Shown: positions 17,486-52,202, numbered from the stretch's first letter. The stretch: DNA of 64,000 bases from a virus (IMGVR_UViG_3300020577_009322:1-64000); one strand, 5' to 3'. Program-made: numbers and translations. The notes: a model not told the origin generated them from the sequence alone.

Positions 17486-19698
17486 TTAAGCTGTAATCAT
17501 CTTCAGCAAAGCTGGACGTATAGCAAATTCTTTAAATTTTGGTAATACGCACAATTTCTTTAATGAGATAATACACAAATCTGTAGAAAGCATTCCACTT
17601 TCTAAGATCTCTGCATAATTAGTAACCATTTTCTTGGTATAATCCTTCTCATTAACTAATGCATAATTAAGAAGACGTTTAGTCATAATAGCAGCAATAT
17701 CCTGCCTTTTATCTTTACCTTCTTTAATTACACTTTTCAGTTCTTTCTTACTCCACTCAATATCATTAGTAAGTAACTGATGAGGACTAGCTAACTTATC
17801 CAAACCATTCTTAATAAAGGTAGTGAACAATACAATATGTTCATTTGGAAGTGATCCCATACCTAAATTCATGATCAGATCCAGATCTTTATTAAAGTCA
17901 GGAATACCACTAATACTATCAAAGTATTTAGTCCAAATCCTCAAATTACCTTTAGCTAAGGTATTACCCTCTTTATCTTTTTCTACAGCTCCCTCGATTA
18001 CCTCAGGGTGCTTGAGCATAAAATTAATCAATTCATATTCTCATCAAGCTCTTTATCTTGATCTCTATACCTTTATATATTCGTATAGTTTAGACTATAT
18101 CATCACCTATTTCATTATAGGTGTTGGGCGCTCGTGGATGGATTATATTCTCTTTCGAGTTTCACCATCTAGTCGTTGAACCGGCCATAGCCATTTAAGC
18201 TATGGATAGGCTGCTGATTACCTGTTTCACTACAGGCTTTCCAGCAATTCACCCAATTAAGATGCATTAACAAAAAACTAAAGTTTTACCACGAAACTTC
18301 TTACCAACCTTTATGGCATAGGCTATATTCTGGTAAGTTTTTCTATCTCCATTGGTATATTCAACATATTCTGTGATAGAGTCAAATATTCTCTTGTCTT
18401 CCACTACTAAAATTTTCTTACAAGTACCACTAGTTTGCTTATATTTAGGTATTTTCTTAACCTTCTTATAGCTCCATTGAAATCCTCCACTAGATTTATT
18501 CTTTAATCCATTTTGGACTTGAATACCTAATTGTCTTAGTACTTCTCTACCACTTGACCATTCTTTCAAGAAATTTCCATCTTTGTCATATTGAAAAACC
18601 TTTCTTGATGTAGAAGGGTTGTTCATTTGAGTCGTTGGAGTAAGAACTGTATTATATACAGGATTTAAAGACTGTATAAAACATTCCTCTTCTCTTATTA
18701 AATTTTTATGGTTACTTGAATTTAGATGGAATCTTTCATTATGTAATGATAGTATCTCAAATTTGAAATCATCTTCACCATATTTGTTGAATATTCTTTG
18801 TAATCTACTTACATGACAGTTATTTCTTTTTAGGTTATTTCTATGATCCTTGCACCTTTTTGAAAGGGAAAGAGCACTACCTATATAGAACAAACCATTA
18901 TGTAATGTGGTAATCTTATATATCCCAGATTTATCAGGAATATTTTGATAATCTTTAAACATTGTATATAATTTATACCAAATATAATACAATAAATCTA
19001 GACTATCAAATAATTTTGTATATTTTTTCACATCTGCCATCAACACCGTATCCTTCAGCAAATTCGGAAGCCCAGATATTAACATCTGCCTTCATATTTA
19101 TTTGTAAACGCCTGGTTTTCTGAGCACTATCTTCACTCTGAACCATAAAATCCTGATCACTTGGATTACAAGTTAATACAATTGTTGAACCTTCTGGTAA
19201 AGCCCAAGAGGTATATCTTTGTTCATCAATTAAAGTCATAGTGGCATTAGCCATCATTGGAGTACACCTGTTAAAATCATCCAATACCAATAATACTGGT
19301 TTATCCTCCTTACCTTGGATCCAACTAGGTTTAGCATATGAAGTTCTGCTCTCATTTAATGCTGTATAGCCCATTGTAATATAGTGAGATAATACTTTAT
19401 CTGCAACCCATAAACATTCCTCATTAGCAGTACCATGACCTTTACAGATCTTATACTCATAAAGTGGTAATCCAATCAAGTCGCATACCTCAATCTCTGA
19501 CACGTTTAACCTAACATAATTAAAATCCAATTCCTGACTTAACTGTTTAACTACAGAAGTTTTAGCTGTTCCTGGCATACCCTCAATTTCAATAGCAATA
19601 GGTACCTTCCCCGCTTTAGATAATTTTACGTTATTATCAACGAAATAATGTAATAAATTTTTAACTTGTAATGAGTTTAACTCGTTTTTGTGTGCCAT
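17486..19698 (-). CDS. MoxR-like AAA+ ATPase, spliced (exons 19698-19030 and 18028-17486; ~403 aa)
   Basis: Walker A GMPGTAKT, Walker B LVLDDFNR; junction VDGRC|INFMLKHPE restores a continuous frame. Confidence 0.85.
18029..19029 (-). mobile_element. Group I intron in the AAA+ gene
   Basis: P AATTGCTGGAAA, Q AATCAGCAG, R GTTCAACGACTA, S ATGATATAGTCT; exon ends in U and intron ends in G. Confidence 0.9.
18267..18962 (-). CDS. Intron-encoded GIY-YIG homing endonuclease
   Basis: SGIYKI...FYIGS; NUMOD-like VFQYDKDG; start at ATG 18962. Confidence 0.9.
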   Translation of the reverse strand: MFKDYQNIPDKSGIYKITTLHNGLFYIGSALSLSKRCKDHRNNLKRNNCHVSRLQRIFNKYGEDDFKFEILSLHNERFHLNSSNHKNLIREEECFIQSLNPVYNTVLTPTTQMNNPSTSRKVFQYDKDGNFLKEWSSGREVLRQLGIQVQNGLKNKSSGGFQWSYKKVKKIPKYKQTSGTCKKILVVEDKRIFDSITEYVEYTNGDRKTYQNIAYAIKVGKKFRGKTLVFC

Positions 19699-20048
19699 TT
19701 TCTCTGTTTTAATTGTTTTTTCTGTTCTTGTTTATTTGTTATTACACATGATCTTTCTATAACCTTATGTCTGCCAACTCTTGTAGATGATTCTTCTTTA
19801 TAACAATCTCTCTTTTCTGATAGAAAGGGTTCTATTGTTTTCCTATCTATTGTGTTAAATATTCTGTTAAATATTCCTTGCTCTCTTGATGCAAGAATTA
19901 TTGCTGAAGGATCAAAAAATGTTCGTAATTCCCAATAATCCTCATACTTATTAGTATTATCACAGAATATAGTTACTGCTAGTTCATTCATTTCCTCATC
20001 AGAACTTCTTATCATATCTACAAGTCTATGTATTAACTGCTTTTCCAT
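19677..20048 (-). CDS. Shared-motif small protein
   Basis: RLVDMIRSSDEEMNELAVTIF. Confidence 0.65.
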   Translation of the reverse strand: MEKQLIHRLVDMIRSSDEEMNELAVTIFCDNTNKYEDYWELRTFFDPSAIILASREQGIFNRIFNTIDRKTIEPFLSEKRDCYKEESSTRVGRHKVIERSCVITNKQEQKKQLKQRKWHTKTS

Positions 20049-20253
20049 TTTTTAAATAATTTTCACCTTCTTCTTTACCTAACTGATATGCTCTACCTGC
20101 CAGCAATGCTTTATATTGACTAGTTGAATAATCCCAATCTCTCGATGTTTCGAATTCTTTTCTTAATATAACTTTAGCCAACTCTTGCATTTCTTCATCT
20201 CCATTTAGCATAGCATTTAATCTATTTATTTCAGTCATCATCATCATAATCAT
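20026..20253 (-). CDS. Shared-motif small protein
   Basis: RLNAMLNGDEEMQELAKVIL. Confidence 0.65.
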   Translation of the reverse strand: MIMMMMTEINRLNAMLNGDEEMQELAKVILRKEFETSRDWDYSTSQYKALLAGRAYQLGKEEGENYLKNGKAVNT

Positions 20254-20635
20254 ACCGATTTGTAGATATATCTATAATCTTTTTACTATTCTCTTTTAAA
20301 AATTCACCAACTAAAGTTCTTTCTTTGAAAAATACAGATAACTTCTTTATCTTTTTATATTCATTTTCTATATCCATTAAAAGATATTGTGTTACTGTTG
20401 TTATTCCATTTTTGAGAAGATGTGATAGTAAATTTCTAAGATTCTTTATTTCCCTCTTTTGCTTTAGAAATAGATATTTCCCTTTCTCTCCATAAGAAAC
20501 ACCACCATTTAAATAGAGAAGGATTTTGTCCATGTCATCCATTTTTGCTGGTAACTTCTCTAACATTAGTCTTCCCAGTCTTCTCATGTTTTTATCTTTA
20601 GATATTAACATGTTATTTATCTTAGTGGGGTCCAT
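20231..20635 (-). CDS. Shared-motif small protein
   Basis: KINNMLISKDKNMRRLGRLML. Confidence 0.65.
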   Translation of the reverse strand: MDPTKINNMLISKDKNMRRLGRLMLEKLPAKMDDMDKILLYLNGGVSYGEKGKYLFLKQKREIKNLRNLLSHLLKNGITTVTQYLLMDIENEYKKIKKLSVFFKERTLVGEFLKENSKKIIDISTNRYDYDDDD

Positions 20636-20919
20636 AGTAATTCAAATAATTCTGTTTTAATTTTATCTGTTTCATTCACAAGTTTATTCATCTCAATATT
20701 AATTACTTCAAAAACAACTCTCTTTGCTCTATCTAAAGCATCATTTCTTAATTCAATAGTATAAGATGGTAAGGGCCATAAAATAGACATACCCAGGTCT
20801 TGCATCTCTATATCTTTACTATCGAGCATATCAAGAATCTTTAAATACTTCCTCAAGATTTCTGTAGATGATTCACTATCTTTCTTCATATCATTGTATT
20901 TCTGCAGAAATACCTGCAT
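20617..20919 (-). CDS. Shared-motif small protein
   Basis: KILDMLDSKDIEMQDLGMSIL. Confidence 0.65.
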   Translation of the reverse strand: MQVFLQKYNDMKKDSESSTEILRKYLKILDMLDSKDIEMQDLGMSILWPLPSYTIELRNDALDRAKRVVFEVINIEMNKLVNETDKIKTELFELLWTPLR

Positions 20920-21160
20920 CAGTTAATGCTACTTTTATAGGAAGTAACTCTTCCATACTACCATTTCTAACCATACATTTTCCCTTATAATGAATAAGAT
21001 AAGCACATTGTTCTGCCTGCTCAGGAGAGTGCTTGGCATACTTTATCAAGCACTCTATTACCCACTCAAATGTATTTACATCATCATTCCAGACAATTAG
21101 CTTATTTTCTAACAAATCATCAATAGAAACATCTGATATTTCTTCTACTTCTTTTACCAT
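20891..21160 (-). CDS. clpS: ClpS N-end-rule adaptor
   Basis: LIVWNDDVNTFEWVIECL...QAEQCAYLIHYKGKC. Confidence 0.93.
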   Translation of the reverse strand: MVKEVEEISDVSIDDLLENKLIVWNDDVNTFEWVIECLIKYAKHSPEQAEQCAYLIHYKGKCMVRNGSMEELLPIKVALTDAGISAEIQ

Positions 21161-21194
21161 GATTATCTTTGTTGTTTTAAATGATGTAAAAATT

Positions 21195-21578
21195 TTATCT
21201 CATGTGGGCCAAACGTTTATATTTATTTTTTAAATATTCTATACTTTCTATCTCAGAGGGATACAAAGATTTTTCCAGAATATCAATTTCATTCAAATTG
21301 GTAGGATTATCTTTATTGAATTGTTCTTCCGCTTCAATAATATAATTCTTTCTTTGTTCCATTAATATTTGATTAGCATTGGTCATTTTTAAGATTACTA
21401 GATTATTTTCTTCTATCATTTGAGAAATTTTCTTAATATCTTCATTTCCTAAGATAAAACCTTCTTTCTTCATATTTCTCTCTCCTTCTAACTCTTTTAA
21501 TTTCTCTAATTTTCTCTTCTTATTTTCTTCTCCTGAGGAGAACATTTGTTTCCATTTCATATTTATTCCATTATCCAT
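21195..21578 (-). CDS. Hypothetical coiled-coil protein
   Basis: Coupled ORF; weak motif-like start KWKQMFSSGEE. Confidence 0.55.
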   Translation of the reverse strand: MDNGINMKWKQMFSSGEENKKRKLEKLKELEGERNMKKEGFILGNEDIKKISQMIEENNLVILKMTNANQILMEQRKNYIIEAEEQFNKDNPTNLNEIDILEKSLYPSEIESIEYLKNKYKRLAHMR

Positions 21579-21895
21579 GCACTAATTTTATCATTCTCTT
21601 TTCTTTCTTCTGCAGTATCCATGATTGCTAAAAAGGAAAAAAGTATTTGAAATAAATTTCCTAATACTAAGGGAATCATATACCATCCAGCACCCCTATA
21701 TGCCAGAAAAATTGTAAAAGCAATTGCTATCGTAGTTAATAATAGATGCAGAGAAAAATAAGTTAACATAGATAATCTTACGGGACTCTTTGTATTAAGT
21801 ATCTTAATAGCTAACTCCCTCATTTCACTATCTTCACTCCTGATCATTGGAATTAATCTTTGTAACTCTCTTTTTTCAATTCTTCTGAAAATCAT
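21563..21895 (-). CDS. Membrane protein (2 TM) with N-terminal shared motif
   Basis: RLIPMIRSEDSEMRELAIKIL followed by two hydrophobic helices. Confidence 0.65.
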   Translation of the reverse strand: MIFRRIEKRELQRLIPMIRSEDSEMRELAIKILNTKSPVRLSMLTYFSLHLLLTTIAIAFTIFLAYRGAGWYMIPLVLGNLFQILFSFLAIMDTAEERKENDKISAWIME

Positions 21896-22344
21896 AATTT
21901 GTACAATTTAGAACGTAGATTTTTTAGTTTATTAGCCTCCTTAAAAGGATATTTCTTATCAAATTCTTCTCTTGCTTCCTTTGTATAGGAGACAAGAGAT
22001 TTCTTAGAAAAGAGAACAACTTGCTGTAACTTCTTTATCTGTGTCTCATAATCAGAGATTTGATTTTGAAGGTCCCTTGTAGCTAAGGAAACATATTGTT
22101 GTCTTTTTATTAATCTTTTATTACTTATCTCAATTAGAGGCTTTATTTGGTCTTTTAGGACTTTTCTTTTTTCCTCCTTTATTTTCTCTTTTCTATGCAT
22201 TTCAAGCAATAATTCTTTATCTCTTTTTCTTCTTTCTTCCATAGTTGCTATAGCTAATCTTCTTTTCCAGGCTTTTTCTATTATAGCTAATTCCTGTGGA
22301 GTATTAAATGTTCTTTTAGAGGGAGCATGATAATAACCTACCAT
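21892..22344 (-). CDS. Hypothetical coiled-coil protein
   Basis: Coupled ORF. Confidence 0.55.
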   Translation of the reverse strand: MVGYYHAPSKRTFNTPQELAIIEKAWKRRLAIATMEERRKRDKELLLEMHRKEKIKEEKRKVLKDQIKPLIEISNKRLIKRQQYVSLATRDLQNQISDYETQIKKLQQVVLFSKKSLVSYTKEAREEFDKKYPFKEANKLKNLRSKLYKL

Positions 22345-22345
22345 A

Positions 22346-24608
22346 TTAGTTAATTTTTATCTTTTTGGATGGGTGATTAAATTCAGTACTACCGTTCTGT
22401 GTAATAACCCAAAGCATTGGTATTTTACATAGTGATGGATTACTCTCGATATATCCATCAGTTAAAGTAATAGCACATGTCCAGTTCTTCTTACCCCTAT
22501 GCTTGTTAACATATTCAATAAAACAAGAAGCACGAGTTCCACCACCTCTAGTTCTTTTATATGTTAATTCACCCTTGTATTCATATGGTTCGTCAGCTTC
22601 AGCATCCCATAAGATAATATCAACTTTTACACCAGCTTTCCACATATGTTTTACCTGCCCATAGAATTCTTTTAATTCATGATCACTTACTGAACCAGAC
22701 GTATCCAACCCACAAACTATTCTAATCTTGTTTTTGTATTTATTAGATGGAGCATCTTCAAATCGAAAATTTGGACGTTTTCTAGTCTGATATATATCAG
22801 TAGTCAATGTGCTACCAATGAATCTATTAAAAAGAGTTTTCCAGGAAATTATTGGTGGTTTATTTCCAAAATCCTCTTTAAGAGAATTAGCTATATGAGC
22901 AGGAACAGTACCACGTAACTTTTCAGTTTCATCACCTATCCTCTTCATAATTTCCTGCATCTCCTTCCTAAACAATTCTTTCTCTTTATCACCCATTCCT
23001 TCAGATAACTCTTTCCATTTATCATGCCAATCTCCAATAGCTTCTTCATTATCTAAGAATTTATCCAATTCTTTACATCCACTTGTACCATTTCCATTTC
23101 CCTTTGGACCAGCCTTACTATCTTCCTTCTTTCCTTTAGAAGATTTCTTTTCTTCTTTAGCTTGCTGAAGACGATTATAGTAATAAAGAGATGATTGATT
23201 TTTCTCCAGTTTCAATTCAGAAAAATTCTCAATCATAACTATACCTGTATCCTTTCCGTCAGGAAATGTTAATGGAGCTTCTTCTTCCCCAATGCACTGA
23301 TTAATAGACATATCCATAGCTATATTAGCTATCATTTTGTCAGGAAACATTCCTTGACTTACATCAGATAAGTGCTCTCTTACTACGTGCTCTCACACTT
23401 GTTAATCTTTATATTTCTATAAAGGTCAGACTATTCCTTCAACCATTATTATGGTTGGTCTATTATAGTCGTTGAACCTCTTCTAGGTTGATAATTGTCA
23501 ATATATTCTTTAAATTTCAAGTATTTTCTATATAAATAAACAGAAGAATTCTTATACATATAATTATATAAAGTAATTGTATCATTCAAGCTAAATTTTA
23601 ACTCAAAGATATTTTTACTTTTATAACAATTCTTATTCTTTACTGGAAGATTCTTAGAAACTTCCTTCAAAAATTCTTCTGATCCAGAACAAAAGGAAGA
23701 TTTTAGGATTTTCCAATCACTTCCTTTTATATTAGTACATACTGTAACGCTTCCATCCCCATCAAAATAACCTCTTATAAAATGAGAAATCATATTTGAT
23801 GGTAGTTTTGGAAATCTAATAACTAGTGATTTTCTAGGTATGCAACCCAGATTTATCAAAGAGTCATACATTTTTCTAGAATCTATAGTTATCTTTCCTA
23901 TAGATTTTTTGAATTTCTTATGTACTTCTATTCTTATTGGTCCAGTGTAACTTATACACTCTTTAAAAATTTCAAGCCAAGAAATATCTGTACTAGATAA
24001 AATTACTCTACCTGTACTATTTTTCTTGTTTGTTGAAATATTTCCATCAGCATACATTACTCCTAACCAGTAACAACTCTGTTCATTTAATTCATTAAAA
24101 TACTCTTCATTAACTGAATATTTTCTTTTGTTTTGACCTCTATTATCATTCATATGTTCTAATTTATATATAAGAATATACATAAATTATTTCATATTAC
24201 CAAGAATTTGGCTGCAGATTTTCCAATTTTATCCATTTTTACCTTACCTAAATAATTAGTTTAGCCACACATTCGTTATTTTCTGTGCTTGGTAGAATAA
24301 ACTCTAAGGAGTTCCCTGCAATTTAAGACATTTTACACATACATTACTGTATGAGGAGCCAGATTTACGTTTAGCTCGTGGATCAATGTCCACTTCTTCC
24401 TACTATCATTATGGCACACTTCCTCCCACCACTTTTTACCCAAATATAAGGTAATATTATTTGAATTAATATGCTTACCTACACATGCTGTAGGTAACTT
24501 ATCATCAAATGTTTTGTTCAGTTCTGCTAAGAACAATCCATAAAATATATACTTACTGTCACATAACATAGTAAATATAATATCTTGTAATGATTTTTCG
24601 TGATCCAT
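22346..24608 (-). CDS. HExxH metallopeptidase plus VWA-domain protein (DUF2201-like), spliced (exons 24608-24373 and 23393-22346; ~427 aa)
   Basis: Splicing CT|A rebuilds HELEHVVREHL; ANIAMD; MIDAS DTSGS, GGGT, LTDGY. Confidence 0.85.
23394..24372 (-). mobile_element. Group I intron inside the HExxH motif
   Basis: P AATTGCAGGGAA, Q AATCTGCAG, R GTTCAACGACTA, S AAGGAATAGTCT; U/G junctions. Confidence 0.88.
23449..24183 (-). CDS. Intron-encoded LAGLIDADG homing endonuclease
   Basis: WLGVMYADG and FIRGYFDGDG double motif; lies between Q and R. Confidence 0.92.
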   Translation of the reverse strand: MYILIYKLEHMNDNRGQNKRKYSVNEEYFNELNEQSCYWLGVMYADGNISTNKKNSTGRVILSSTDISWLEIFKECISYTGPIRIEVHKKFKKSIGKITIDSRKMYDSLINLGCIPRKSLVIRFPKLPSNMISHFIRGYFDGDGSVTVCTNIKGSDWKILKSSFCSGSEEFLKEVSKNLPVKNKNCYKSKNIFELKFSLNDTITLYNYMYKNSSVYLYRKYLKFKEYIDNYQPRRGSTTIIDQP

Positions 24609-24613
24609 AATTT

Positions 24614-25039
24614 TTAAGTTAATATCTCGAAACATTCTATTCTATCTGCAACTGAACAAAATGATTGAGACGATTTGTTATAATATTTTGCTTCTACTTT
24701 TGTTATATAAAGAGTTCCTTTATATTCTACGGAAATGGATGTTACTACCATAGTTGGACATCCTTCCATTCCTCTATATCTTACTTTATGTCCAATATTA
24801 AGAATATGTCTATTATCTGCTATATGAGCTAATATCTGATCTTTTGGAGCTGATCCTATACCTGCTTGTGGGCTACTACCATTAAAGGAAGATAATACAC
24901 CCGTGTAATTTAGTAAAGCAGCCCATATAGCAGGATGCTCTATCTTACACACTTCCAGAGCTAAATTTATACTCTCTGGATCTCCTGCTTTTAGTAGCAT
25001 CTTTATCTTTTCTGGAAACTTAGCATCTCCTTTTATCAT
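24614..25039 (-). CDS. Shared-motif protein with a C-terminal SH3-like domain
   Basis: KIKMLLKAGDPESINLALEVC; IGHKVRY...PTMVV. Confidence 0.6.
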   Translation of the reverse strand: MIKGDAKFPEKIKMLLKAGDPESINLALEVCKIEHPAIWAALLNYTGVLSSFNGSSPQAGIGSAPKDQILAHIADNRHILNIGHKVRYRGMEGCPTMVVTSISVEYKGTLYITKVEAKYYNKSSQSFCSVADRIECFEILT

Positions 25040-25293
25040 TATTCTATCTTTTTTACTCGTTTCTTAATAGCGTCTTTTACTGTAGGTAGATATAATTCTG
25101 CCCAATTCTGTAACAAATTTTCCTTATCTTTAAAAGATGATTTACCTGATATATAATCTTCCACAAACTTATCAATATATTTCCTCTTTTGCTCATCACT
25201 TACCTCTGTAGATCGTAATAGGGTAGTTCCTAACTCTTCATTTTCTAAGATTCCGGAAGAGAGTAACTCATCTATCATTTTATTTAATTCCAT
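25039..25293 (-). CDS. Shared-motif small protein
   Basis: MIDELLSSGILENEELGTTLL. Confidence 0.6.
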   Translation of the reverse strand: MELNKMIDELLSSGILENEELGTTLLRSTEVSDEQKRKYIDKFVEDYISGKSSFKDKENLLQNWAELYLPTVKDAIKKRVKKIE

Positions 25294-25651
25294 CTCTTCT
25301 TCTGATTTGATAATCTATTATTGTTTCCCTCAATTCAAACATAGCTATCTTCTGAAAGTTATCCTTGCCATCATTAAGATTCCATACTGCATTTCTTCTT
25401 CCTCCTATTATTTTTCCTTGCGCTACATTTCCCTTTATCGGTATATGTATTCTACGTAGAAAGCGATTACTCCCTAGATATTTAATAAGAAACAATTGAT
25501 GTTTAGGAGTCAACGATTTGGATAGCTTGATTCCAAGGATTATTAGCTCTTGATCCGTAGAGAGAATCATACTTTTTACTTTGCTCACTATTCCATTTGT
25601 CATATCTTTCTTGTAATTTACTAACATCTTGTAGCTTACACTTAAATTCAT
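25280..25651 (-). CDS. Shared-motif small protein
   Basis: KVKSMILSTDQELIILGIKLS. Confidence 0.6.
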   Translation of the reverse strand: MNLSVSYKMLVNYKKDMTNGIVSKVKSMILSTDQELIILGIKLSKSLTPKHQLFLIKYLGSNRFLRRIHIPIKGNVAQGKIIGGRRNAVWNLNDGKDNFQKIAMFELRETIIDYQIRRRDGIK

Positions 25652-26225
25652 GCAATGCTAAAATTCTGCTATCAACATTTACTTCACTTAAATCTTTTAT
25701 ACTTTCTATAGATTCTGGATCTTCTATTAAAGGTAATAAGTTAACTCTCTCCGCTAACATAAATATATATATATTATCCAAAGATAGGTTTTTATTTCTT
25801 AAAGTATAAGATCTATGATAAGATAATATATCTCTTATACTATTAATTTTTCCCTCTATTATCTTTTTACAAAAGGTTGGAGTAGGATATCTAAAGAAAG
25901 GTTTCATCAACTCAATATCACTCTTAAAGTACTTTTCCTTACACAAATCATTAAATACATCCATTCTACTCTTAGAAATTTTTACCTTCTTTGTCTTCTT
26001 ATTATATACCATCCACTGTAATAACTCACTCTTTTTATAGAAGGTTCCTGTATTACTAACTTTAATTGTATCACATATTTTATAGTATCCTATCTTCTCT
26101 TCATTATCTATTTTCTTACTATATAAATTATCTGATAATCCATAATGGAAAAATATGTATTTTTGTAACTGTTTATCTTCCAATTCAAGAAATTCATCTA
26201 TATTCATATTTTCCTTATTTATCAA
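25503..26225 (-). CDS. Hypothetical protein
   Basis: 240-aa ORF coupled to the rIIA-like gene. Confidence 0.6.
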   Translation of the reverse strand: MINKENMNIDEFLELEDKQLQKYIFFHYGLSDNLYSKKIDNEEKIGYYKICDTIKVSNTGTFYKKSELLQWMVYNKKTKKVKISKSRMDVFNDLCKEKYFKSDIELMKPFFRYPTPTFCKKIIEGKINSIRDILSYHRSYTLRNKNLSLDNIYIFMLAERVNLLPLIEDPESIESIKDLSEVNVDSRILALHEFKCKLQDVSKLQERYDKWNSEQSKKYDSLYGSRANNPWNQAIQIVDS

Positions 26226-28473
26226 AATCCATCTTATAATACTTCCAATTCATCTTTATCGTTCTTTGTCTTGCAATATCATGCATGGCACGTATTGATT
26301 TTTCCTGATAAGTATTTCCCTTTTGTACAGTTAACATTCCACCCAAAGCGAAGAAATCAACAAAATCAAATTTGTCAATATCTTCTTTTACTTTATTATA
26401 TGTTTCCCATATTTCACTATCATATAATTTCAATGTATCTACCAAATCTACCAAATCTTTCATAAAATCCTCGTGTCTATGAGATATATCTGTACAATAT
26501 ACTTTGGCATATTTCTGTAATTTTTCTAAATCATCTCTAAATTTAGATGATAGAAAATTACCTATTATTTCCTTATTCCTAAAAGTACTAAGATATTCAT
26601 TCATCATTTTATCTATTAGATAGGCTGTAACCCCTCTCCCAACAGTCTTATGTTTACCCTTGAAGAATTCATCTACTTCCATAAAGTTATGTAATTTTAA
26701 TTGTTTTAGATAAGTTTGCTGTCTTTCTGTAACTATACATGCTTTAACTGTAGTACCATCATGAAATAATCGATAGACTAAATCTAACTTCCTACGTTTA
26801 TCTTCAGTACCATAGACATGAAAAAATGGTCTACTATATAAGTCTTTTACTTTGATTATTCTCTCTTCAAATTTGCATGACCAATCAGATGACCTCTTAT
26901 CCATTGGTTTACAATATTTTACACCAATCTCTCCAGACATATCTACTAAAGATACTTTCTCTTTCTTATTTGGTGTCTTTCTGACTGTTGTGTTAAAATT
27001 AGCAGGAATCTTTATATTACTTACTTTAATCAGATAATCTTTCTCAATAGAATCCTCTACTAGTTTGGCTTGTCTTATTGAATCTCTCCATAGATTTATT
27101 CCTGATGATAGGTAAGTAGATCTCATAGTAGCTTTACTACATAAACCTAGTAATCTTGTATAGGATAAATCTACTTTCTCTAAACATATCTTGTTCTTTT
27201 TATAAAGACCTGCTCCTTTATACTCACTATTTATATAGGATGCCATTTTCTTACTAATAGGAATATCAACTAAAATCTTTTTATCATGCTGCCAGTGCAT
27301 CCAGTATCTAGGTTTTATTTTGGAACCAGTATTACTGATATCATTAATATTAAAATATAGATTCTTTCCATTAGAGGTAGAAGATAGAAATTTCTGAATT
27401 ACTTTATCATTTACATCTTTAAATTCTATCTCCTTACACTTTTCTAAAGAAAATGGTAATAGACTATCAATTATATAGGTAACTCCTTCTATATTAACTC
27501 TTTTAGAAGACCCCACTAACTCAATATATTTCTTAACAGATGTCAACTCATCTGGTATATTCTTGTTATATCTTTTAATAAACCAGGTAGATACCTTCTC
27601 TATCTTCTTCTTGATAATCAATTCATAATCAATAGTATATTGTAGATTTTCTCGAGTTAAATCAGCATTCAATCCATCTGCCATGCTAAATTTTAAACCT
27701 ATATTTAAATGAATAGGTTTCATTCCTAATCTCTCCCAATTAATAGGATAGTAATACTGATCCAGGCAGATATGCATATCTGCATTCTTTGAAAGTGTAG
27801 ATATCTGAATATCATCTGTTTGAAATATTTTAAACTCACTATTTAATGTCAGTAGTTCTCTATAACGGCTAATGAGAGTAGGATCAAACTGAAACATTAT
27901 ATCCTTAAAATAACATAACTTTCTCTTCATGTTTTCTATAAAAAGAGAAATTGTTGAGGTATCATATCCAAGTGAAGATCCTACTAAAACCTCAAACAAT
28001 ACATATTTATCTTCAGTAGTTTCTTCATATTCACTTATGTTATGAGTTAATCCCACTCCCTCTACTTCCTTAAGAATAGCATTGAATTTTCTGCCGTTCT
28101 TTACTACTGTATATTTCCATTCAGGTTTAAAAGCTGATACTGATATACTACCAATACCATGCTCCCCCATCTGACAATTTTCACTACTTGTTTTCTCTGT
28201 AGACTTTTCACTCTCCAGGATAGTACATACTGTTTTCTCAAAATGTTCCCTACTATCAAAGGATTTACCGGTATCCCTCACATAAAATATATAATCACCT
28301 TTCTCTAGTTTTATTCCAACTTCTACAGGATCTGTTTGTCCTATAGAACGATGACTATCTACTGCATTTTGACAAATCTCACTAATAAATGAGTATTTAT
28401 CACTGTATAATTTTTTTCCAAATACCTGATGTAATTTTGCTGTGTTTCCACTTAATCCTAGCTGTTTCTCCAT
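26215..28473 (-). CDS. GHKL (Hsp90-like) ATPase, RIIA-like
   Basis: LYSDK...EICQNAVDSH, VRDTG, MGEHGIG, LTRENL. Confidence 0.8.
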   Translation of the reverse strand: MEKQLGLSGNTAKLHQVFGKKLYSDKYSFISEICQNAVDSHRSIGQTDPVEVGIKLEKGDYIFYVRDTGKSFDSREHFEKTVCTILESEKSTEKTSSENCQMGEHGIGSISVSAFKPEWKYTVVKNGRKFNAILKEVEGVGLTHNISEYEETTEDKYVLFEVLVGSSLGYDTSTISLFIENMKRKLCYFKDIMFQFDPTLISRYRELLTLNSEFKIFQTDDIQISTLSKNADMHICLDQYYYPINWERLGMKPIHLNIGLKFSMADGLNADLTRENLQYTIDYELIIKKKIEKVSTWFIKRYNKNIPDELTSVKKYIELVGSSKRVNIEGVTYIIDSLLPFSLEKCKEIEFKDVNDKVIQKFLSSTSNGKNLYFNINDISNTGSKIKPRYWMHWQHDKKILVDIPISKKMASYINSEYKGAGLYKKNKICLEKVDLSYTRLLGLCSKATMRSTYLSSGINLWRDSIRQAKLVEDSIEKDYLIKVSNIKIPANFNTTVRKTPNKKEKVSLVDMSGEIGVKYCKPMDKRSSDWSCKFEERIIKVKDLYSRPFFHVYGTEDKRRKLDLVYRLFHDGTTVKACIVTERQQTYLKQLKLHNFMEVDEFFKGKHKTVGRGVTAYLIDKMMNEYLSTFRNKEIIGNFLSSKFRDDLEKLQKYAKVYCTDISHRHEDFMKDLVDLVDTLKLYDSEIWETYNKVKEDIDKFDFVDFFALGGMLTVQKGNTYQEKSIRAMHDIARQRTIKMNWKYYKMDFDK

Positions 28474-28772
28474 TATTTTCTTTCTTTTAACTCAATTTTG
28501 TAAATCACCATAGTTTTCATCATCAAATCATTATGTATATCACTTATCTCTCTTATATTATCCAGGAAGAACCATGTATAGTCTCTAAGAATTTTCCATC
28601 TCCCTGCATTGAATTTAACAATATGATAACTTATTCTATATGCATGACATAATTTTTGTCCCAATTTCTTTAACTCTTTATCATCACTAGCAAATAGAAG
28701 AATAATTTTAGAACGGACATTCGTTAGATCTGTCCCAGTCACCTTTGTTCCACATAATCTCTTGTTTTCCAT
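28473..28772 (-). CDS. Shared-motif small protein
   Basis: KIILLFASDDKELKKLGQKLC. Confidence 0.6.
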   Translation of the reverse strand: MENKRLCGTKVTGTDLTNVRSKIILLFASDDKELKKLGQKLCHAYRISYHIVKFNAGRWKILRDYTWFFLDNIREISDIHNDLMMKTMVIYKIELKERK

Positions 28773-29842
28773 TAGCCTTTAGGATTTTGTTTATTCGAGT
28801 AAATACTCTTTTATGTTCCCATTCCATTTTCTTATGAGAAGCTGCAGCAGGGTGTTCTACTTTAATTATGTAATTACCTAATGGATTAATAAATTCTTCC
28901 ATTCTTTCTGATACTTTTCCTGCCAAGACATATATAATCGATGGTTTGCTTCCCATAATGTTCTCAAGAAAATATTTCTGAAATTTCTCCCAATACTTCT
29001 TATGTGAAGAAGTCTTATTCAATTTACATGTCAAATCGGTATTTGTTAGCATAACTCCTTGATTAAGAAGATAGTCTAGATTAAGTGGTTTCTCAATCTT
29101 TGTCCCAGTATCTTTCTCAATTCCTTCATAAAATAATTCCAGAGAGTCTTGTAATTCTCCATCTGGAGAGTTACTACAATCCATAGCTATTCCAGTAGCT
29201 TGTGGTACTTTATTTTTATATCTGCGTGGATATGGCAATTTGTTATCTGTAAAGCTTTTTATCTCTACATTCTATGATTTTCTATATAGTCATAGTTCAG
29301 CATATATCATCACCTGTAATGAGATAGGTGTTGGGCGCTCGTGGATATATTATATTCTCCTAAGAGTTTCAATATCTATGCGTTAGACCTTTTAAGATCA
29401 TTTAAATCTTAACTTGGTACGGGATTGACTGTTTCACTACAGTTATTCCCCGTTTCACCCAATTTTACATGGACCAGTTTATATTTCAGATAATCTGTAA
29501 CATTAGATCTTATCAAGTCGATTAGTTTTGAGCAACTCTTTGAGGATATTCTGATAGTATTATCTGACTTATTATAAGTTGCTCTAATTTCTCAATCTTC
29601 TCTTTCTGTATATCTTTTTATTTTGGTTAATCCATTAAGTACCATACAACTTTAATATCTTCTGGTATTGTCTTGGCAAATACCTTAAAGGTATTATCAC
29701 TATCAGGTAAAATAACCTCTTTCTTAGCATCTTCTTTTATTTTCTCATATATATCAAACATATCTTTACTTTCAATAAAAGGCTTAAACAGTTCTGCCCA
29801 AGCACCAAATTTTCCAGCAAAATCATTATAGTCTAACTGCAT
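28708..29842 (-). CDS. ung: Uracil-DNA glycosylase (family 1-like), spliced (exons 29842-29630 and 29235-28708; ~246 aa)
   Basis: IKVVWYLMD|PYP, QATGIA, QGVMLTNTDLT, EHPAAA. Confidence 0.85.
29236..29629 (-). mobile_element. Group I intron in UDG with a degenerate endonuclease remnant
   Basis: Core elements similar to the other introns (GGTCTAACGCATAG, ATGATATATGCTGAAC); U/G junctions at the D|P catalytic loop. Confidence 0.85.
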
Positions 29843-30050
29843 CTTTATATAATTTATTTATTATTATTATACATAATTCTCTAATCTGCACGTCTTTGCT
29901 ATTTATCATAGACATAAATTTGTAAAATTGTTCTCTGTTTATATCATAGTTAATATACAAATCTCTTATCTTTCTTATTATTAAATCTGTCCTACGTATA
30001 CAAACATTATTTGGACGAGTGTGTTCTAAAGGATAATAAAATCTTGTCAT
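29826..30050 (-). CDS. Shared-motif small protein
   Basis: KFMSMINSKDVQIRELCIIII. Confidence 0.6.
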   Translation of the reverse strand: MTRFYYPLEHTRPNNVCIRRTDLIIRKIRDLYINYDINREQFYKFMSMINSKDVQIRELCIIIINKLYKDAVRL

Positions 30051-30232
30051 TTACCTTTATATTTTCTGGTTTTCTTATCTACACCCCAATATTTCTCCCA
30101 TAATTGATTGAGCATAGAAAATCCTAAATCTCTCATATCACTATTAGAAGAGTATATCATCCTACTAATTGTTTCTGCCTGCTCTTTTGGCAACTTACCA
30201 TATTGTCTTAAGTGTTTCAAGCGAGGATTCAT
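30047..30232 (-). CDS. Shared-motif small protein
   Basis: TISRMIYSSNSDMRDLGFSML. Confidence 0.6.
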   Translation of the reverse strand: MNPRLKHLRQYGKLPKEQAETISRMIYSSNSDMRDLGFSMLNQLWEKYWGVDKKTRKYKGK

Positions 30233-30453
30233 TTTATTATATTATATATCTTCATTTTAGCCATCTTGTTACAAATAGCTATAATTTTATTAGTATTATC
30301 CTGCCATTCCTTCCATTCTTTCTTTTTCCTCTTGTCTGGAGAAGAAGCAAACAATCTCTCTATCTCATCAAAATAATCTATTGTATTTTCTGAATGAAAT
30401 GGTTTTTCCTCTTCTTCCGCTTTGGTAATGGGGTTCTTTTTCTTTTTAACCAT
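30229..30453 (-). CDS. Hypothetical protein
   Basis: Coupled ORF. Confidence 0.5.
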   Translation of the reverse strand: MVKKKKNPITKAEEEEKPFHSENTIDYFDEIERLFASSPDKRKKKEWKEWQDNTNKIIAICNKMAKMKIYNIIK

Positions 30454-38549: not shown

Positions 38550-39620
38550 TTAAATGTATTTTACTTTTTCCTTATCGAAGAACATCAAAGCTGTTGATAT
38601 TCTATCGATTTCAAAATCCTCATCGCTAACTACTATATGAATAGAAGCTTTTTTCTCAGGATTATCATATTCTAATCCTAGAAAACGACAAATCTTTTGT
38701 GCTGTATCTTCAGGATTTCCTGAAGTATAATTAATTAGTCCTATATTTATAGGAACAATTGTTAGACCAGACTGTGCCATTTTTATTGTTACTAAGCAAT
38801 TACCTTTCCCGTTACAGAAATTAGATAATACTCCCTTTTCTTTATTCTTGGAATGATACACGGGATATCCTAGCTTATCTGCTATCTCAGTAACTCCACA
38901 AAAGCATAGTACTCTTTTTCCAGAGAAGGAAGAGAGTAACTCTTTTGTTTTCTCCATCTTTGCTATAGAATTCTGAATAAGGGATATTTGCTTTAAATAA
39001 ACAAAAAAGGAGTCTTTTTTCTCCTTTTCTAATTTGCTATAGGCATTTTTCAATATCTCGAACTGTTTCTTTTCTGTTCGTTTATTAGGTAGCAACTTAC
39101 TATTATCTAAAGCTACTTTGTGAATGAAAATTTCATAATCACACAATATTCCTTCTTCAACAGCCTGTTCTATAGGATAGTCATAACACACATCAATATC
39201 TGCAAGATTACTTATTTCTTCCTGTGTTTTTTTGGTTATGGTACCACTTAAGGCTAATACCTTCTTTGGATTTATCTTCTTTACAGAACATAGTTGGTTA
39301 GAAGAGCATTCATGTATCTCATCTATAACTAATATATCATAATTGTTAATAGATACCTTATGAAGAGAGCGGTGAGTAGTATATTCTATCTCACCATCCC
39401 ATCCCCATTTTTCTTTGTCTTTTTCCCAACTATCCTTTATATCCAGACGTGGAATAGCTATTAGAGCCTTTTTAATCAAATCTCTCTTAAAGATATCTAA
39501 GGTAACCTTTATTTTTCCAAATCTAGGTGCACATTTAAGCAATGAATGGTATTTTCCACTATAACTATTTACTGCTTCTAACTGTCTTATCTTTCTTATC
39601 CCTTGGTCTTCTATTAGCAT
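38550..39620 (-). CDS. Superfamily 2 helicase
   Basis: APRFGK, VIDEIH, LSGT, QKICR. Confidence 0.85.
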   Translation of the reverse strand: MLIEDQGIRKIRQLEAVNSYSGKYHSLLKCAPRFGKIKVTLDIFKRDLIKKALIAIPRLDIKDSWEKDKEKWGWDGEIEYTTHRSLHKVSINNYDILVIDEIHECSSNQLCSVKKINPKKVLALSGTITKKTQEEISNLADIDVCYDYPIEQAVEEGILCDYEIFIHKVALDNSKLLPNKRTEKKQFEILKNAYSKLEKEKKDSFFVYLKQISLIQNSIAKMEKTKELLSSFSGKRVLCFCGVTEIADKLGYPVYHSKNKEKGVLSNFCNGKGNCLVTIKMAQSGLTIVPINIGLINYTSGNPEDTAQKICRFLGLEYDNPEKKASIHIVVSDEDFEIDRISTALMFFDKEKVKYI

Positions 39621-40260
39621 ATCTTTCTTTCTTTAATTCTGAATATGGTTTAACTTTATTCTCCTCGCTTGTTAGATAAATTAGATAATTTTTGTATTTA
39701 TGATCCTTTTTAGCATATCTATTCAATGTTCTATTTTTGGATCCTATATACTCTCTAAGTAATCCTATACTATTAAATCTTTTGATAAGAATTCCATTAA
39801 GAGTGAAAAGACTAACTTTAATTGAATGAATTTGTACTCGTTTAATAACACGCTTACCTTCTGCTATGGCCTTCTTCATAGATAAAGAAATCCTCTCTCT
39901 TGTAGAAATAGTTGGAGATATTTGATAGTTTAAATCTACTAATCTTCTCTTATTATACTCCGGAGAGATATAATCCATCCAATGTTGCTCACGATCCTTT
40001 AATAGTATTCTAATTTTATCTTTTGATAAATTTTCACAATCTAAAATCTCAAGAATCTTAATATCAAACTTATCAATTCCATATTTATTGAAAGCATTCT
40101 GTAAATGTTTATTATGAATTCTACCCGTCTTGTTAAGACAAAGATAAGTATGTAACCTATTATATAGGTCAATAGAAGATCCTATGTAAGACTTTCTATT
40201 GACCTTATTAATTATCTGATAGATTCCAGATTTGTATCTTATATTTTTCTCTATTTTCAT
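39565..40260 (-). CDS. Free-standing GIY-YIG homing endonuclease
   Basis: SGIYQI...SYIGSS; no intron core nearby. Confidence 0.9.
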   Translation of the reverse strand: MKIEKNIRYKSGIYQIINKVNRKSYIGSSIDLYNRLHTYLCLNKTGRIHNKHLQNAFNKYGIDKFDIKILEILDCENLSKDKIRILLKDREQHWMDYISPEYNKRRLVDLNYQISPTISTRERISLSMKKAIAEGKRVIKRVQIHSIKVSLFTLNGILIKRFNSIGLLREYIGSKNRTLNRYAKKDHKYKNYLIYLTSEENKVKPYSELKKERYANRRPRDKKDKTVRSSK

Positions 40261-48530: not shown

Positions 48531-49937
48531 CTATTGAAATTCTGTCTTAACAACGGTATTTAGAAGTGTTGATACCTGTTTAGCCATATCATCAAGATTA
48601 GTTACTATAGTATGGTAGGTATATATCTCTTTCACTTGACCCAATTCTACACCTACACCAACAGTAACAAAGCCATCCCTTTTACATTTTTCAATAGTCT
48701 GCTTCATTTCCATAACAGCTGAACGACCACCATATCCTGAGGCACAGGGTAAACCATCTGAAATAACGATAAAGATAATATTATCGTCAGTAAAAGAACG
48801 AACCTTATCGTAAATGGCTTCAATAACAGGTCCGTCATAGTTTCCACTCCAGAAAGCATTCCTCTGCCATCCGATGGCTCTCTCAAAAATATGGTTGTAC
48901 TTATCATTGTAGATATTTATATGTGGCATGCCAGCATCATCTGTAGAATGACCATATACAAAAATCTTATCTGCAGGAAGGATGGATGATAGACATTTCC
49001 ATAATATCTTCATAATGGAATGCTGACTATCTGCTTTAGTAGAATGGTATTTTCCATCTATTCCTCCCATACTACCACTTTCGTCCATCAAGATACATAC
49101 GGAGAAAGGTTTGGTTGTCTGATTCTCTTGTTCATTATAATAGACATGAAAATTACCAGCTTTAACTTCTGCTAACTTTCTACTATCTAACTTTCCTGTC
49201 TTCAGACCATTTACTCTATCATGTTGCGGATCAAAAGATATATCAAGTAAGTTTACCAAGTGTCCTGCATATAGATTTTCTAATTCATTATACTTACAAG
49301 GTGCTCCCTTCGAAGGTACAACTCTCCATCTTACCTTATCCTTCATTTCACAAATAGATCCTTCTACATCTAACCATTTCGTTCTTCTCGGAATAACTTT
49401 CTCGATAAGTTCTCTGGCATTGTCTAGAGCAGCTTCAATACTCATTTCACCACTATCTCCTTCATCCTCACCACCCCCTTCTCCCCTACTATCCTCCTGA
49501 CCCTCACCTTCATCTCCTTCTTCTCCCTTACCTTCTCCATTTTCCTTTCCATCGTTCATTGGAAAAAGGAACTCACTTTTCTCGATTATACTCCGATAGT
49601 GAGTAAATAAATTCCCCAACTCAGTATCTTTAGCTACACTATCTAACACATTCTTTTTTGCTGTTTCAGATACAGAGAGAAACTTTTCCTCCTGACCAGA
49701 AAATGGATTTTTCCTTTCTATTGAGGTAGCTTTATCTAGAAAGTGATCTATTAACTTATTCTCTTTTATTTTGAGAAGAAATATATCAAGCAACTTGTTA
49801 GCAGAATATCCACTCAACTCTATACTTTTAGGTAATTCCCTCTCAATATCAAAGGGTACTTTAACTTCAGGATAGTCGAGTAAAACTTTATGATAACCAC
49901 CAAAGTAAGAAGATTCCCATTTAGTTGATGATTCCAT
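48531..49937 (-). CDS. VWA domain protein (CobT/CbbO-like)
   Basis: Acidic Gly/Glu linker, TGKLD, LMDESGSM, NYDG, ISDG.P. Confidence 0.88.
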   Translation of the reverse strand: MESSTKWESSYFGGYHKVLLDYPEVKVPFDIERELPKSIELSGYSANKLLDIFLLKIKENKLIDHFLDKATSIERKNPFSGQEEKFLSVSETAKKNVLDSVAKDTELGNLFTHYRSIIEKSEFLFPMNDGKENGEGKGEEGDEGEGQEDSRGEGGGEDEGDSGEMSIEAALDNARELIEKVIPRRTKWLDVEGSICEMKDKVRWRVVPSKGAPCKYNELENLYAGHLVNLLDISFDPQHDRVNGLKTGKLDSRKLAEVKAGNFHVYYNEQENQTTKPFSVCILMDESGSMGGIDGKYHSTKADSQHSIMKILWKCLSSILPADKIFVYGHSTDDAGMPHINIYNDKYNHIFERAIGWQRNAFWSGNYDGPVIEAIYDKVRSFTDDNIIFIVISDGLPCASGYGGRSAVMEMKQTIEKCKRDGFVTVGVGVELGQVKEIYTYHTIVTNLDDMAKQVSTLLNTVVKTEFQ

Positions 49938-52202
49938 TATTTTATCTTTGTTTGTCCTAAAATAGCCTCAATAGACTTTAATCCTTCCTTACTTCCAATT
50001 CCTTTACAGATAGTAAAGAATGAGTCATATATGGTAAAACCATCCCTAACCAATTCTGCTACTAGCTTTAAGTGCCTGATAGACAAATTAAAGGAGATAG
50101 TATACTTATCATGAGCAGTATTTATGTCCTCATAACACTTAACAATTCTGTCAATATCTTTAGGAGATACTGTTGGAGTATGGTAAGTTAATACTTCTTT
50201 AACTTGATTGGTTGTTAGTGGATCAATCTCAATAAGCATGAACCTATCTAATAAGGCTCTATCCAATTTATGTGTACCTGTATACTGACTACCCAAGTTA
50301 GCAGTAGAGATAAATACACATTCAGGATGTACCTTAATTGGCTCACAATCATCAAAACAGTATTCCATTGACAGTTCTTTCCTGAAATCCGTACATGGGA
50401 ATAGGAGGTTATTTGCGGCTGCTGGAGCCATATTGTTATCGTATCGACTCTTTATTCGATACTTCTGTATCTTTATCTATACATACAGTTCAGACTATAT
50501 CATCATGATTTCTCATGTCGGATGTTCGTGGATATATTATATTCTCTTTCGAGTTTCAATATCTAGTCGTTGAACTCGCACTAACCATTTAGATTAGTGA
50601 TAAGCTGCTGATTACCCTCTTCACTAAGGGCTTTCCAGCAATTTATCCGATTTTTTACAAGACGCTACTCCATATAGGAAAACGTGTATTTTTTCCGCAA
50701 AGTTTTACCCTTACCTAAGCAAATTGAAGAAATAGAAGCACAAGTAGAATCAAAGTTGTCATTTGACAGAGATCTGGCTGCTTCTGCTATATTTGCAAAT
50801 ATAGATTTTTTACCAGTTGATAATTCTGTCATGATAACTGACCTCCACTTCCACTTAGAGCGTTCTATCCCATAAGAATAGTTAGGAACTTCTATATAAC
50901 TCCAATAATAACCACCCGCACTAAAAATTTTACCTCTGGCACAAGCAGATATCATGTTATTACATACTTTTGTTTTTCTACCTGCCTCTCTGGTTGAAGG
51001 AAAATTAGCTAATAATCTACCATCTAAAGTATATTGATAAACTTCCTTACTAGTAGATGTGCAATTATTTTGAGTAGTTGGATCCAACTCACAATTAAGT
51101 GTTGGACCTAATAGATCTATCCATTTCTTCTCTATCTTTCTAACTTCAGAAGAATCTTCGGTCTCCAGGATTTCTAGTACTGAGAAATACATATAATCTT
51201 CTCCATATTTATTGAAGATATTCTGCATTCTTGGATTATCCGATTTCCCACCTCTCAACTTTTGCTTGTGTTCAGCTAATCTCTTCTTAATATTTATCGA
51301 ACTACCTACGTAATTCTGCTCCTTTGCTTTAATATAGTAAATACCCGATTTACTAATTACACGTTTTGATTCATCACTAAATAATTTGTACATTGTTTTT
51401 CTTACAATATACAAATATTTGATGAGATATCCTAATTTAATTTTTAACGACTTATTTCATCTAATAACACAATACCTGGTTTCTGAATAACCTCAGAGAA
51501 ACGACTCCTGATGAACTCGGAGGTGGTATGTCCATCTTTTACCTTAATAGCATGGGTTCCAACTAACGACATAACGGGATCACTCATTGTTCCCATATCG
51601 AAGATAGTTAATGGTAATCCCATTTTCTTTGCCAAATTACTAACCAATTCTGTTTTACCTCATCTTGTTATCGTAAAGATTCTTTATTCTTTACTTCTGC
51701 ATCTTTTTATATTCATGCAGTTCAGACTATATCATCACCATTTCTAGTGTCGGGCACTCGTGGGAGAGATTATTGTTGAGCTCACTCTCCTAGTCGTTGA
51801 ACCTTCTAAACTCCTTTATCTCAAGTTTAGCTTGGCTGCTGATTGGCCGTTTCACTACGGCTATTCCAGCAATTCACCCGATTTATACTGGGCTAGGTAA
51901 ACCTAACTCCTTATCCATCTAGTTAATTTCTTACAATGTACGAAAATTATTGACAAATAGGACTATTAGGCTATATTTATTTTAACACCAGTTGGACCCA
52001 ATAGCATACTATTGACGCCCTTCAATATATTCCTCTCCAGAATCTTATACACACCTACTTGTACCTTAAAGTAGTCATTCAAGGATACATAACCATTTGT
52101 AATCTTCAGATCAGCGGTACTTACTGCAGTTTTAATAGGATCTGTTTTTCTTTTTGCTCTTGGCTTACGTACTTTGGTCACCACTTCTCTTTCTGTTGTC
52201 AT
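49937..52202 (-). CDS. CbbQ/NirQ/CobS-like AAA+ ATPase, spliced from 3 exons (52202-51985, 51660-51447, 50428-49937; ~307 aa)
   Basis: Splicing rebuilds Walker A GPTGVGKT and LLDEISR|APAAANNLLF; STAN, DRALLDRF, SIR.L. Confidence 0.88.
50429..51446 (-). mobile_element. Group I intron just after Walker B
   Basis: AATTGCTGGAAA, AATCAGCAG, GTTCAACGACTA, ATGATATAGTCT; U/G junctions. Confidence 0.9.
50665..51414 (-). CDS. Intron-encoded GIY-YIG homing endonuclease
   Basis: SGIYYI...YVGSS; NUMOD1-type repeats. Confidence 0.9.
   Translation of the reverse strand: MYIVRKTMYKLFSDESKRVISKSGIYYIKAKEQNYVGSSINIKKRLAEHKQKLRGGKSDNPRMQNIFNKYGEDYMYFSVLEILETEDSSEVRKIEKKWIDLLGPTLNCELDPTTQNNCTSTSKEVYQYTLDGRLLANFPSTREAGRKTKVCNNMISACARGKIFSAGGYYWSYIEVPNYSYGIERSKWKWRSVIMTELSTGKKSIFANIAEAARSLSNDNFDSTCASISSICLGKGKTLRKKYTFSYME
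51661..51984 (-). mobile_element. ORF-less group I intron inside Walker A
   Basis: AATTGCTGGAAT, AATCAGCAG, GTTCAACGACTA, ATGATATAGTCT; GT|A junction gives Val. Confidence 0.88.

Follow-up and report, generated by a model that had tools for sequence, protein, structure and literature searches.

The viral record IMGVR_UViG_3300020577_009322 has four genes, all on the minus strand, whose reading frames break off within conserved stretches, and the question raised by this locus is what interrupts them and why the interruptions lie where they do. The window (the whole stretch analysed here, 64,000 nucleotides) covers the initial 64 kb of a record of 155,463 bp that is complete and has a terminal repeat and a G+C content of 31.6%. 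The interrupted genes would encode two MoxR-type AAA+ ATPases (AAA1 and AAA2), a zincin-like metallopeptidase with a VWA-like domain (zincin-VWA), and a protein resembling family-1 uracil-DNA glycosylase (UDG). We conclude that the interruptions are very probably five self-splicing group I introns, named I1 to I5, in the early/replication gene block of a crAss-like phage. An earlier note on this DNA had proposed five such introns at the coordinates listed in Table 1, and both the RNA models and the joins seen in homologs bear these out. As that note also stated, four of the five lie in genes of AAA+/VWA modules (AAA1, the DUF2201 zincin-VWA gene and, twice, AAA2), according to Pfam matches of the genes or their homologs.

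All five coordinate pairs give an in-frame join, with a T at the end of the exon and a G at the end of the intron, as had been claimed for each. The joins were compared with uninterrupted genes of related IMG/VR contigs (numbered with the prefix L), a check that the earlier note had suggested, and all five aligned without a gap. In AAA2, the joins LLGPTGV^GKTELV and LLDEISR^APAAANN (the caret marks the junction) were gapless against L006 (67% protein identity), L007 and L008 (54%), and L009 (43%), and the protein context permits no other placement of I4 or I5. The AAA1 join, GVDGRC^INFMLKHPE, was gapless against five homologs of 37 to 78% identity, and the zincin-VWA join, LIHEL^EHV, against those of L010 to L016, which include homologs that are 65% identical. 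For the UDG-like protein, the join YLMD^PYP was gapless against L017 to L019 (53 to 62% identity); these homologs were found through neighbouring loci, and a peptide-pattern exon search of viral contigs gave nothing.

The predicted RNA pairings point to the same boundaries. In 5/5 introns, the splice-site U and a G of the guide form the U·G pair of P1, and I1, I2, I4, and I5 have a P10 of 3 to 7 bp (Table 1). Every intron carries an in-frame stop 0 to 13 codons past its 5' splice site, and no second copy of any interrupted gene was seen. Because of this, we infer that expression of the interrupted genes depends on splicing.

The same stops decide against inteins, which would be removed at the protein level. 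An intein could be suspected from the LAGLIDADG domain, present in I2 and also typical of inteins, and from the inteins carried by other crAss-like phages (PMC7886860). However, an in-frame stop at or soon after the start of each insert refutes it. Moreover, the endonuclease open reading frames (ORFs) are out of frame with the exons, Pfam scans gave no Hint domain, and RNA cores are present. We regard the chance that these are inteins as practically nil.

The group I cores were searched with the Rfam model RF00028, whose curated gathering threshold is 50 bits. Three introns exceeded it: I5 (51704-51978, 88.9 bits), I1 (18072-18322, 83.6 bits), and I4 (50471-50690, 64.1 bits). For I2, the search gave two halves below the threshold, on either side of the LAGLIDADG ORF (23407-23548, 33 bits, and 24180-24320, 28.7 bits); we attribute this to the ORF, which splits the core. 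I3 was not reported by RF00028, either in the scan of the region or in the search of the whole genome. The covariance-model search proposed in the earlier note thus supported I1, I4, and I5 outright, I2 in part, and I3 not at all. A permissive Rfam scan of positions 17000 to 31000 missed I1, I2, and I3 and gave two chance-level sRNA matches, while the whole-genome search recovered I1 and I2.

Relatives of the family were collected from IMG/VR with a conserved 19-mer, which gave more than 117 contigs, and our own model found 167 copies in 80 loci. A hidden Markov model (HMM) built solely from 112 copies of other viral contigs matched I5 (E = 6e-44), I1 (2e-39), I4 (7e-35), and, over its full length, I3 (3.7e-23); it hit nothing else in the genome apart from both halves of I2, each matched weakly. 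The I3 core can be aligned over its whole length to the cores of I1, I4, and I5, and the alignment of these four copies contains P3, P4, P5, P6, P6a, a helix between P7 and P3', P9, and P9.1. In our own model, 29 of the 47 pairs are compensated among the four. Among 41 family members, 93.4% of the cells were paired, 41/47 pairs showed double changes, and the covariation score reached 0.732, whereas shuffles gave 0.178 and slid partners no more than 0.119; because this alignment had been fitted to the model, the pair counts are somewhat inflated. Neither RF00028, our own model, nor the HMM found a sixth intron in the whole 155-kb genome. A weak match of our own model (4422-4548, 19.7 bits) falls within an intact 185-amino-acid (aa) ORF and was taken as chance. 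A sixth intron had also been suspected at a GIY-YIG gene (39565-40260); no RNA core was found there, and the adjoining helicase ORF has its own ATG and a motif I-like sequence.

These cores also bear on whether splicing is needed at all. Free-standing homing endonuclease cassettes could have split the genes, the pieces being translated separately as split proteins, and the genome does have free-standing GIY-YIG genes (39565-40260 and 53404-54141). Such cassettes would not explain why complete group I cores flank or follow each interruption, why I3 and I5 have no ORF at all, or why P1 and P10 guides are matched to each site. In addition, the downstream exons have no start codons at the junctions, and those after I2 and I5 begin in the middle of a codon. 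We therefore consider translation as split proteins very improbable.

Not every intron is equally well supported, and several points weigh against five working introns. P10 of I3 is only weak, I2 stays under the Rfam gathering threshold, the mobility of I3 and I5, which encode no endonuclease, is conjectural, and the covariation alignment has the bias noted above. Some introns, with I3 and I2 as the candidates, might then be decayed, splicing-dead relics and their host genes pseudogenes. The absence of I3 from the RF00028 reports, its lack of an ORF and of a clear P10, the overlap of the I2 core by its ORF, and the scores of the I2 halves would all suit such decay. On the other hand, both exons keep intact conserved frames and catalytic residues (HELEH in zincin-VWA; DPY and HPAAAS in the UDG-like protein). 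I3 retains every helix of the family and matches the HMM of foreign sequences over its full length, and its compensatory changes include P7, which is altered on both strands (GACUA/UAGUC to GCAUA/UAUGC). The support for the I2 structure is a single-sequence fold of the RNA with the ORF deleted, which has P1, P2, P4, P8, and P9. Decay of some introns thus seems unlikely to us, if less so than the two preceding alternatives, and we retain five functional group I introns as the preferred reading.

Table 1. Predicted introns, their endonuclease genes, and their host and partner genes (positions in the window; the caret marks the splice junction)
Feature	Position	Strand	Description	P1	P10
I1	18029..19029	-	1001 nt; in AAA1, GRC^INF; IA-like core 18029-18269; join matches uninterrupted homologs in L010-L013 and L016	AGAUGU/GCAUCU	AUUAAU/GUUAAU
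I1 endonuclease gene	18267..18962	-	GIY-YIG + NUMOD1, in P1 loop; Pfam GIY-YIG E = 4e-6		
AAA1 gene	17486..19698	-	MoxR-like AAA+ ATPase; two exons, 403 aa spliced		
I2	23394..24372	-	979 nt; in metallopeptidase-VWA gene, inside HExxH codons, HEL^EH	GAGCU/GGCUC, 12-nt loop	AGA/UCU
I2 endonuclease gene	23449..24183	-	LAGLIDADG; Pfam LAGLIDADG_3 E = 5e-7; paralog at 118051-118908 of the genome		
Zincin-like metallopeptidase + VWA-like gene	22346..24635	-	DUF2201_N + DUF2201; two exons, 436 aa spliced		
I3	29236..29629	-	394 nt, no ORF; in UDG-like gene, directly after catalytic-loop Asp, LMD^PYP	AUGGAU/GUCCAU	weak
Family-1 uracil-DNA glycosylase-like gene	28708..29842	-	two exons, 246 aa spliced; Pfam UDG on exon 2		
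I4	50429..51446	-	1018 nt; in AAA2, after LLDEISR^A, behind Walker B	AUAAGUCGU/GCGUCUUGU, one U×U mismatch	GCUCC/GGAGU
I4 endonuclease gene	50665..51414	-	GIY-YIG (E = 2.4e-10) + NUMOD1 (E = 2.2e-9), Pfam; in P1 loop		
I5	51661..51984	-	324 nt, no ORF; inside AAA2 Walker A, GGT GT^A GGT AAA ACA	ACUGG(U)GU/GCCCAGU, one bulged U	AGGUAAA/UUUACCU, 7 bp
AAA2 gene	49937..52202	-	MoxR/CobS-like AAA+ ATPase; three exons, 307 aa spliced		
CobT-like VWA partner gene	48531..49937	-	directly downstream of AAA2, uninterrupted		

By their anatomy, I1, I3, I4, and I5 are assigned to one widespread IA-like phage intron family and I2 to a different kind of group I intron. The four have no P2, and their guide sequence stands immediately 5' of P3. 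Between the 5' strand of P7 and P3', they share a covarying extra helix (alignment columns 105-109/133-137), and they thereby show the P7.1/P7.2 helices that define subgroup IA. I2 lacks this helix and is therefore not placed in that subgroup. Over 116 nt, the 5' core of I2 is 73 to 76% identical to unannotated stretches of SPO1-like Bacillus phages.

The endonuclease genes are placed differently in the two kinds of intron. In I2, the LAGLIDADG gene begins after P6 and reads through P7 and P3' into P8, and in I1 and I4 the stop codons of the GIY-YIG genes, which occupy the P1 loop, fall within the P10/guide element. For I4, the guide G that pairs with the U of the splice site is itself the last letter of the UAG stop. 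Since stop codon and guide overlap, an RNA of either intron would be unable to form P1 while its endonuclease is being translated. Between the endonucleases of I1 and I4, identity is 32% (E = 5e-27). In I3 and I5, a search for endonuclease remnants gave nothing below E = 0.1; the P1 loop of I3 (29475-29629, -) is about 155 nt long, has a perfect 8-bp stem (GAGCAACU/AGUUGCUC), and holds no trace of an endonuclease.

In total, the genome has six related GIY-YIG genes and two LAGLIDADG genes. The first of the two free-standing genes named above, on the minus strand and without an intron core, immediately precedes an SF2 helicase gene (38550-39620), the start of which it overlaps. The second, also on the minus strand, includes a NUMOD1 domain; it is a distant relative of the intron GIY-YIG genes. 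Three additional genes for homing endonucleases are found elsewhere in the genome (118051-118908, 125652-126278, and 128320-129117).

We next consider where the introns are inserted. The earlier note had placed them mostly at catalytic motifs, and this stands for I5, inside Walker A (GPTGV^GKT), for I2, inside HExxH, and for I3, which directly follows the Asp aligned to the catalytic Asp in the GQDPY loop of solved family-1 UDGs. I4 lies behind Walker B, five residues past its aspartate. The statement does not extend to I1, which is away from known catalytic motifs; its site, RC^INFMLKHPE, falls in the best-conserved block of AAA1's C-terminal half. Within their genes, the five junctions have conservation percentiles of 98.5, 85.9, 87.7, 99.7, and 77.7 (12-residue windows), and by simple arithmetic the chance that all five would fall in the top quarter is about 1e-3. 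These percentiles, and the recurrence of insertions near Walker A and B in AAA1 homologs of nine other contigs described below, fit the claim that homing elements sit at conserved, important codons.

The assignment of the host genes is based on profile matches. Exon 1 of AAA1 matches AAA_3, AAA_5, and AAA, and the uninterrupted AAA2 homolog of L006 matches the full AAA_5 domain (E = 9.7e-14). In the I2 host gene, DUF2201_N is a putative metallopeptidase domain and DUF2201 a VWA-like domain. The UDG-like homolog matches solved UDG structures (E = 2.8e-15), and the protein also retains the C-terminal HP(S/A)xxS motif. The CobT-like partner of AAA2 has a weak Pfam match to CobT_C (20.6 bits, against a cut-off of 21 bits) and a PHROG match to the cobaltochelatase CobT subunit. 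AAA1 and its zincin-VWA partner are 2.6 kb apart here and adjacent in relatives.

To see how far the family reaches, 61 distinct 3' exons of family introns in other contigs were compared with Pfam. They include nine major capsid proteins (MCPs) of five families and three PhageMin_Tail minor tail proteins, as well as DnaB, ThyX, dUTPase, and ribonucleotide reductase (RNR). The IA-like family is therefore read as a generalist in its targets. The earlier note had set the AAA+/VWA insertions apart from the DNA-metabolism genes in which phage introns are classically found; as a matter of this genome, NrdJ, PolB, and RecA are indeed free of introns, but across the family the contrast is weaker than had been implied. 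NrdJ forms one stretch (TIGR02504, 438 bits against a cut-off of 400 bits), as does PolB (700 aa, with PHROG DNA polymerase matched over residues 9-686), and RecA is uninterrupted, with its full profile matched. The MCP of the 155-kb phage is also free of introns.

AAA1 homologs are interrupted by family introns in nine other contigs (L058, L089, L044, L074, L035, L045, L049, L082, and L094). In eight of them, an intron with a GIY-YIG gene follows the R-A-D codons just behind Walker B (LDDxxRAD^). In L094, the intron lies in Walker A of the AAA1 homolog (GCT GGG AT^A GGC AAA ACC), exactly the nucleotide position of I5 (ACT GGT GT^A GGT AAA ACA), which is in the other AAA+ paralog. AAA1 of the present phage and its close relatives has RCT or RVT instead of RAD at the Walker B site, RCT in this phage, and is empty there.

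The four family cores of this genome are 59 to 71% identical to one another. In a tree of these four and 37 foreign copies (232 columns), to be read as indicative only, an RNR intron joins I1 and I4 (support 0.93), a DnaB intron and others join I3 (0.92), and I5 stands apart, while the Walker A intron of L094 clusters with the Walker B introns of the same gene (0.99). A recent duplication of the four introns within this genome was rejected, given the identity of the cores, the 32% identity of the endonucleases, and their distribution over at least three clades mixed with foreign introns.

It is conceivable, and we propose it only tentatively, that the DNA encoding the P-loop and the surroundings of Walker B in AAA+ genes serves as a portable landing site, so that one intron/GIY-YIG lineage could hop between non-orthologous ATPase genes and between motifs. 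We suggest this because I5 and the L094 intron share a nucleotide position in genes that have little in common beyond the P-loop (GGN NN^N GGN AAA AC), and because the L094 intron groups with Walker B introns and I1 and I4 with an RNR intron. If so, lineages of the family would switch sites often and would not be faithful to one homing site.

Several contigs of the family hold tandem arrays of cores. L070:37-5356 (IMGVR_UViG_3300044846_005229, 279 kb), L097, L071, and L073 have 5 to 14 intron cores each, on one strand; L070 has 14, and most cores in these arrays are spaced by 19 to 112 nt. Between two cores of L070, the ORF L070:907-1494 (-) matches Pfam Phage_cap_E, and for this reason it seems that one major capsid gene holds a dozen or more group I introns separated by micro-exons. 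Comparison of L070 with L097 reveals one copy that is present in one and absent from the other, with exact boundaries (CGGT^...G^AAGG). For the arrays of L070, L097, and L071, tRNA introns were discarded after ARAGORN found no tRNA, as was an AAA+ gene, suspected from the peptide AINDFRRA, since Pfam gives a major capsid protein.

Taken together, these observations suggest the following course. Each gene would be transcribed together with its intron, and the intron RNA would fold so that the exon-terminal U pairs with the guide G in P1, where an external guanosine attacks. P10 would align the 3' exon, and the exons would be joined after the terminal G, which would restore the frames of AAA1, zincin-VWA, the UDG-like protein, and AAA2. 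The endonucleases are presumed to cut intron-less alleles of co-infecting relatives, and repair would copy the intron in. Such homing into the alleles of relatives is our proposed reason why the introns sit on the most conserved codons. Relatives at 43 to 80% protein identity lack all five introns, which would provide the mixed population that homing requires. I5 probably spread by co-conversion during homing of I4, given that it has no ORF and is separated from I4 only by the 214-nt middle exon of AAA2 (51447-51660). One possibility, by analogy, is that the introns benefit the phage by interfering with intron-less relatives in the same cell.

Regarding the phage itself, its capsid protein clears the Pfam cut-off for Crass_capsid, and it encodes giant proteins of 3908 and 2170 aa. 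Maribacter phage Panino leads the best matches listed for its family-B polymerase, and most of those that follow are crAss-like gut phage genomes. Based on the capsid and polymerase matches and the giant proteins, we accept the label crAss-like. Megablast of both intron regions against 50,697 phage records gave zero matches, indicating no close cultured relative among them. The window also contains a third MoxR-like AAA+ gene (bpMoxR/AAA_5; 37537-38532, -), which is uninterrupted. It is followed by a 390-aa gene without a family match, possibly its partner; the two together occupy 36372-38532 (-). About nine small ORFs occupy 19677-22344 (-), between the zincin-VWA gene and AAA1, the two being adjacent in L010, L011, and L013. 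A tRNA gene lies at 62895-62968 (-; Rfam tRNA, 70.9 bits).

The finding does not change the understanding of how group I introns work, but it matters for reading such genomes. Annotation without intron removal would miscall the four genes as 9 fragments and "hypothetical" pieces, in place of the predicted spliced products: a MoxR-like ATPase and the zincin-VWA protein that partners it, a pair resembling CobS/CobT, and a family-1 UDG. As a compact and sharply delimited test set, the locus combines introns of both families, five in all, some with endonucleases and some without, and relatives supply the intron-less alleles; studies of homing, and perhaps of interference competition, in environmental crAss-like phages could draw on it. 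The recurrence at Walker A and B would be a concrete case of selfish elements settling on codons that the host cannot change.

Among characterized phages, T4 offers a close parallel in intron structure. Its nrdB and sunY introns have no P2, I-TevI is an intron-encoded GIY-YIG endonuclease, and insertion is at conserved codons. Like T4 with td, nrdB, and sunY (subgroup IA2), the present phage has several related IA-type introns with extra helices between P7 and P3'. However, the T4 ORFs lie in the P6 or P9.1 loops, whereas the GIY-YIG genes described here lie in the P1 loop with their stop codon in the guide, and the T4 targets are nucleotide-metabolism genes. Blastn detected no direct similarity to T4. 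Staphylococcus phage Twort has three group I introns in one gene, orf142, and AAA2, with two, is similar in having multiple introns per phage gene. Twort and the SPO1-like phages differ in host phyla and target genes.

Close parallels in biology are phages of Bacteroidota-type hosts, whose core genes likewise hold numerous group I introns and homing endonucleases. In the crAss-like Delta group, introns are reported in the MCP, PolB, primase, and AAA ATPase (ATP_43b) genes, and genomes of the Zeta group have up to 14 introns (Yutin et al. 2021; PMC7886860). Jug jumbo gut phages of Bacteroides have a mean of 18.5 group I introns per genome, and metatranscriptome reads support splicing in 37/76 predictions (PMC12880540). 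Those studies detected introns mostly through endonuclease domains or large-scale model scans and did not analyse individual sites (PMC7886860, PMC12880540). Unlike in the published crAss-like and Jug cases, the targets here are MoxR-type AAA+/VWA modules and a UDG, while PolB, MCP, NrdJ, and RecA are clean. The endonucleases are of the GIY-YIG and LAGLIDADG types, in contrast to HNH in the published crAss-like cases; cores related to I5 adjoin annotated "intron-encoded HNH endonuclease" genes in cr1_1, cr50_1, and Carjivirus communis and also occur in Clostridium and Staphylococcus phages. In ΦPA3, the intron endonuclease gp210 mediates interference competition between co-infecting phages (PMC11620839). 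The present phage resembles it in having an intron-borne endonuclease in an essential gene and close relatives with intron-less alleles, and a competitive benefit here would be conjecture by analogy. Overall, the five introns are a well-resolved instance of a habit already known in crAss-like phages and not a new kind of element. It contributes site-level detail: insertion at catalytic codons in AAA+/VWA modules, a P1-loop endonuclease whose stop lies in the guide, and a Walker A position shared by paralogs.

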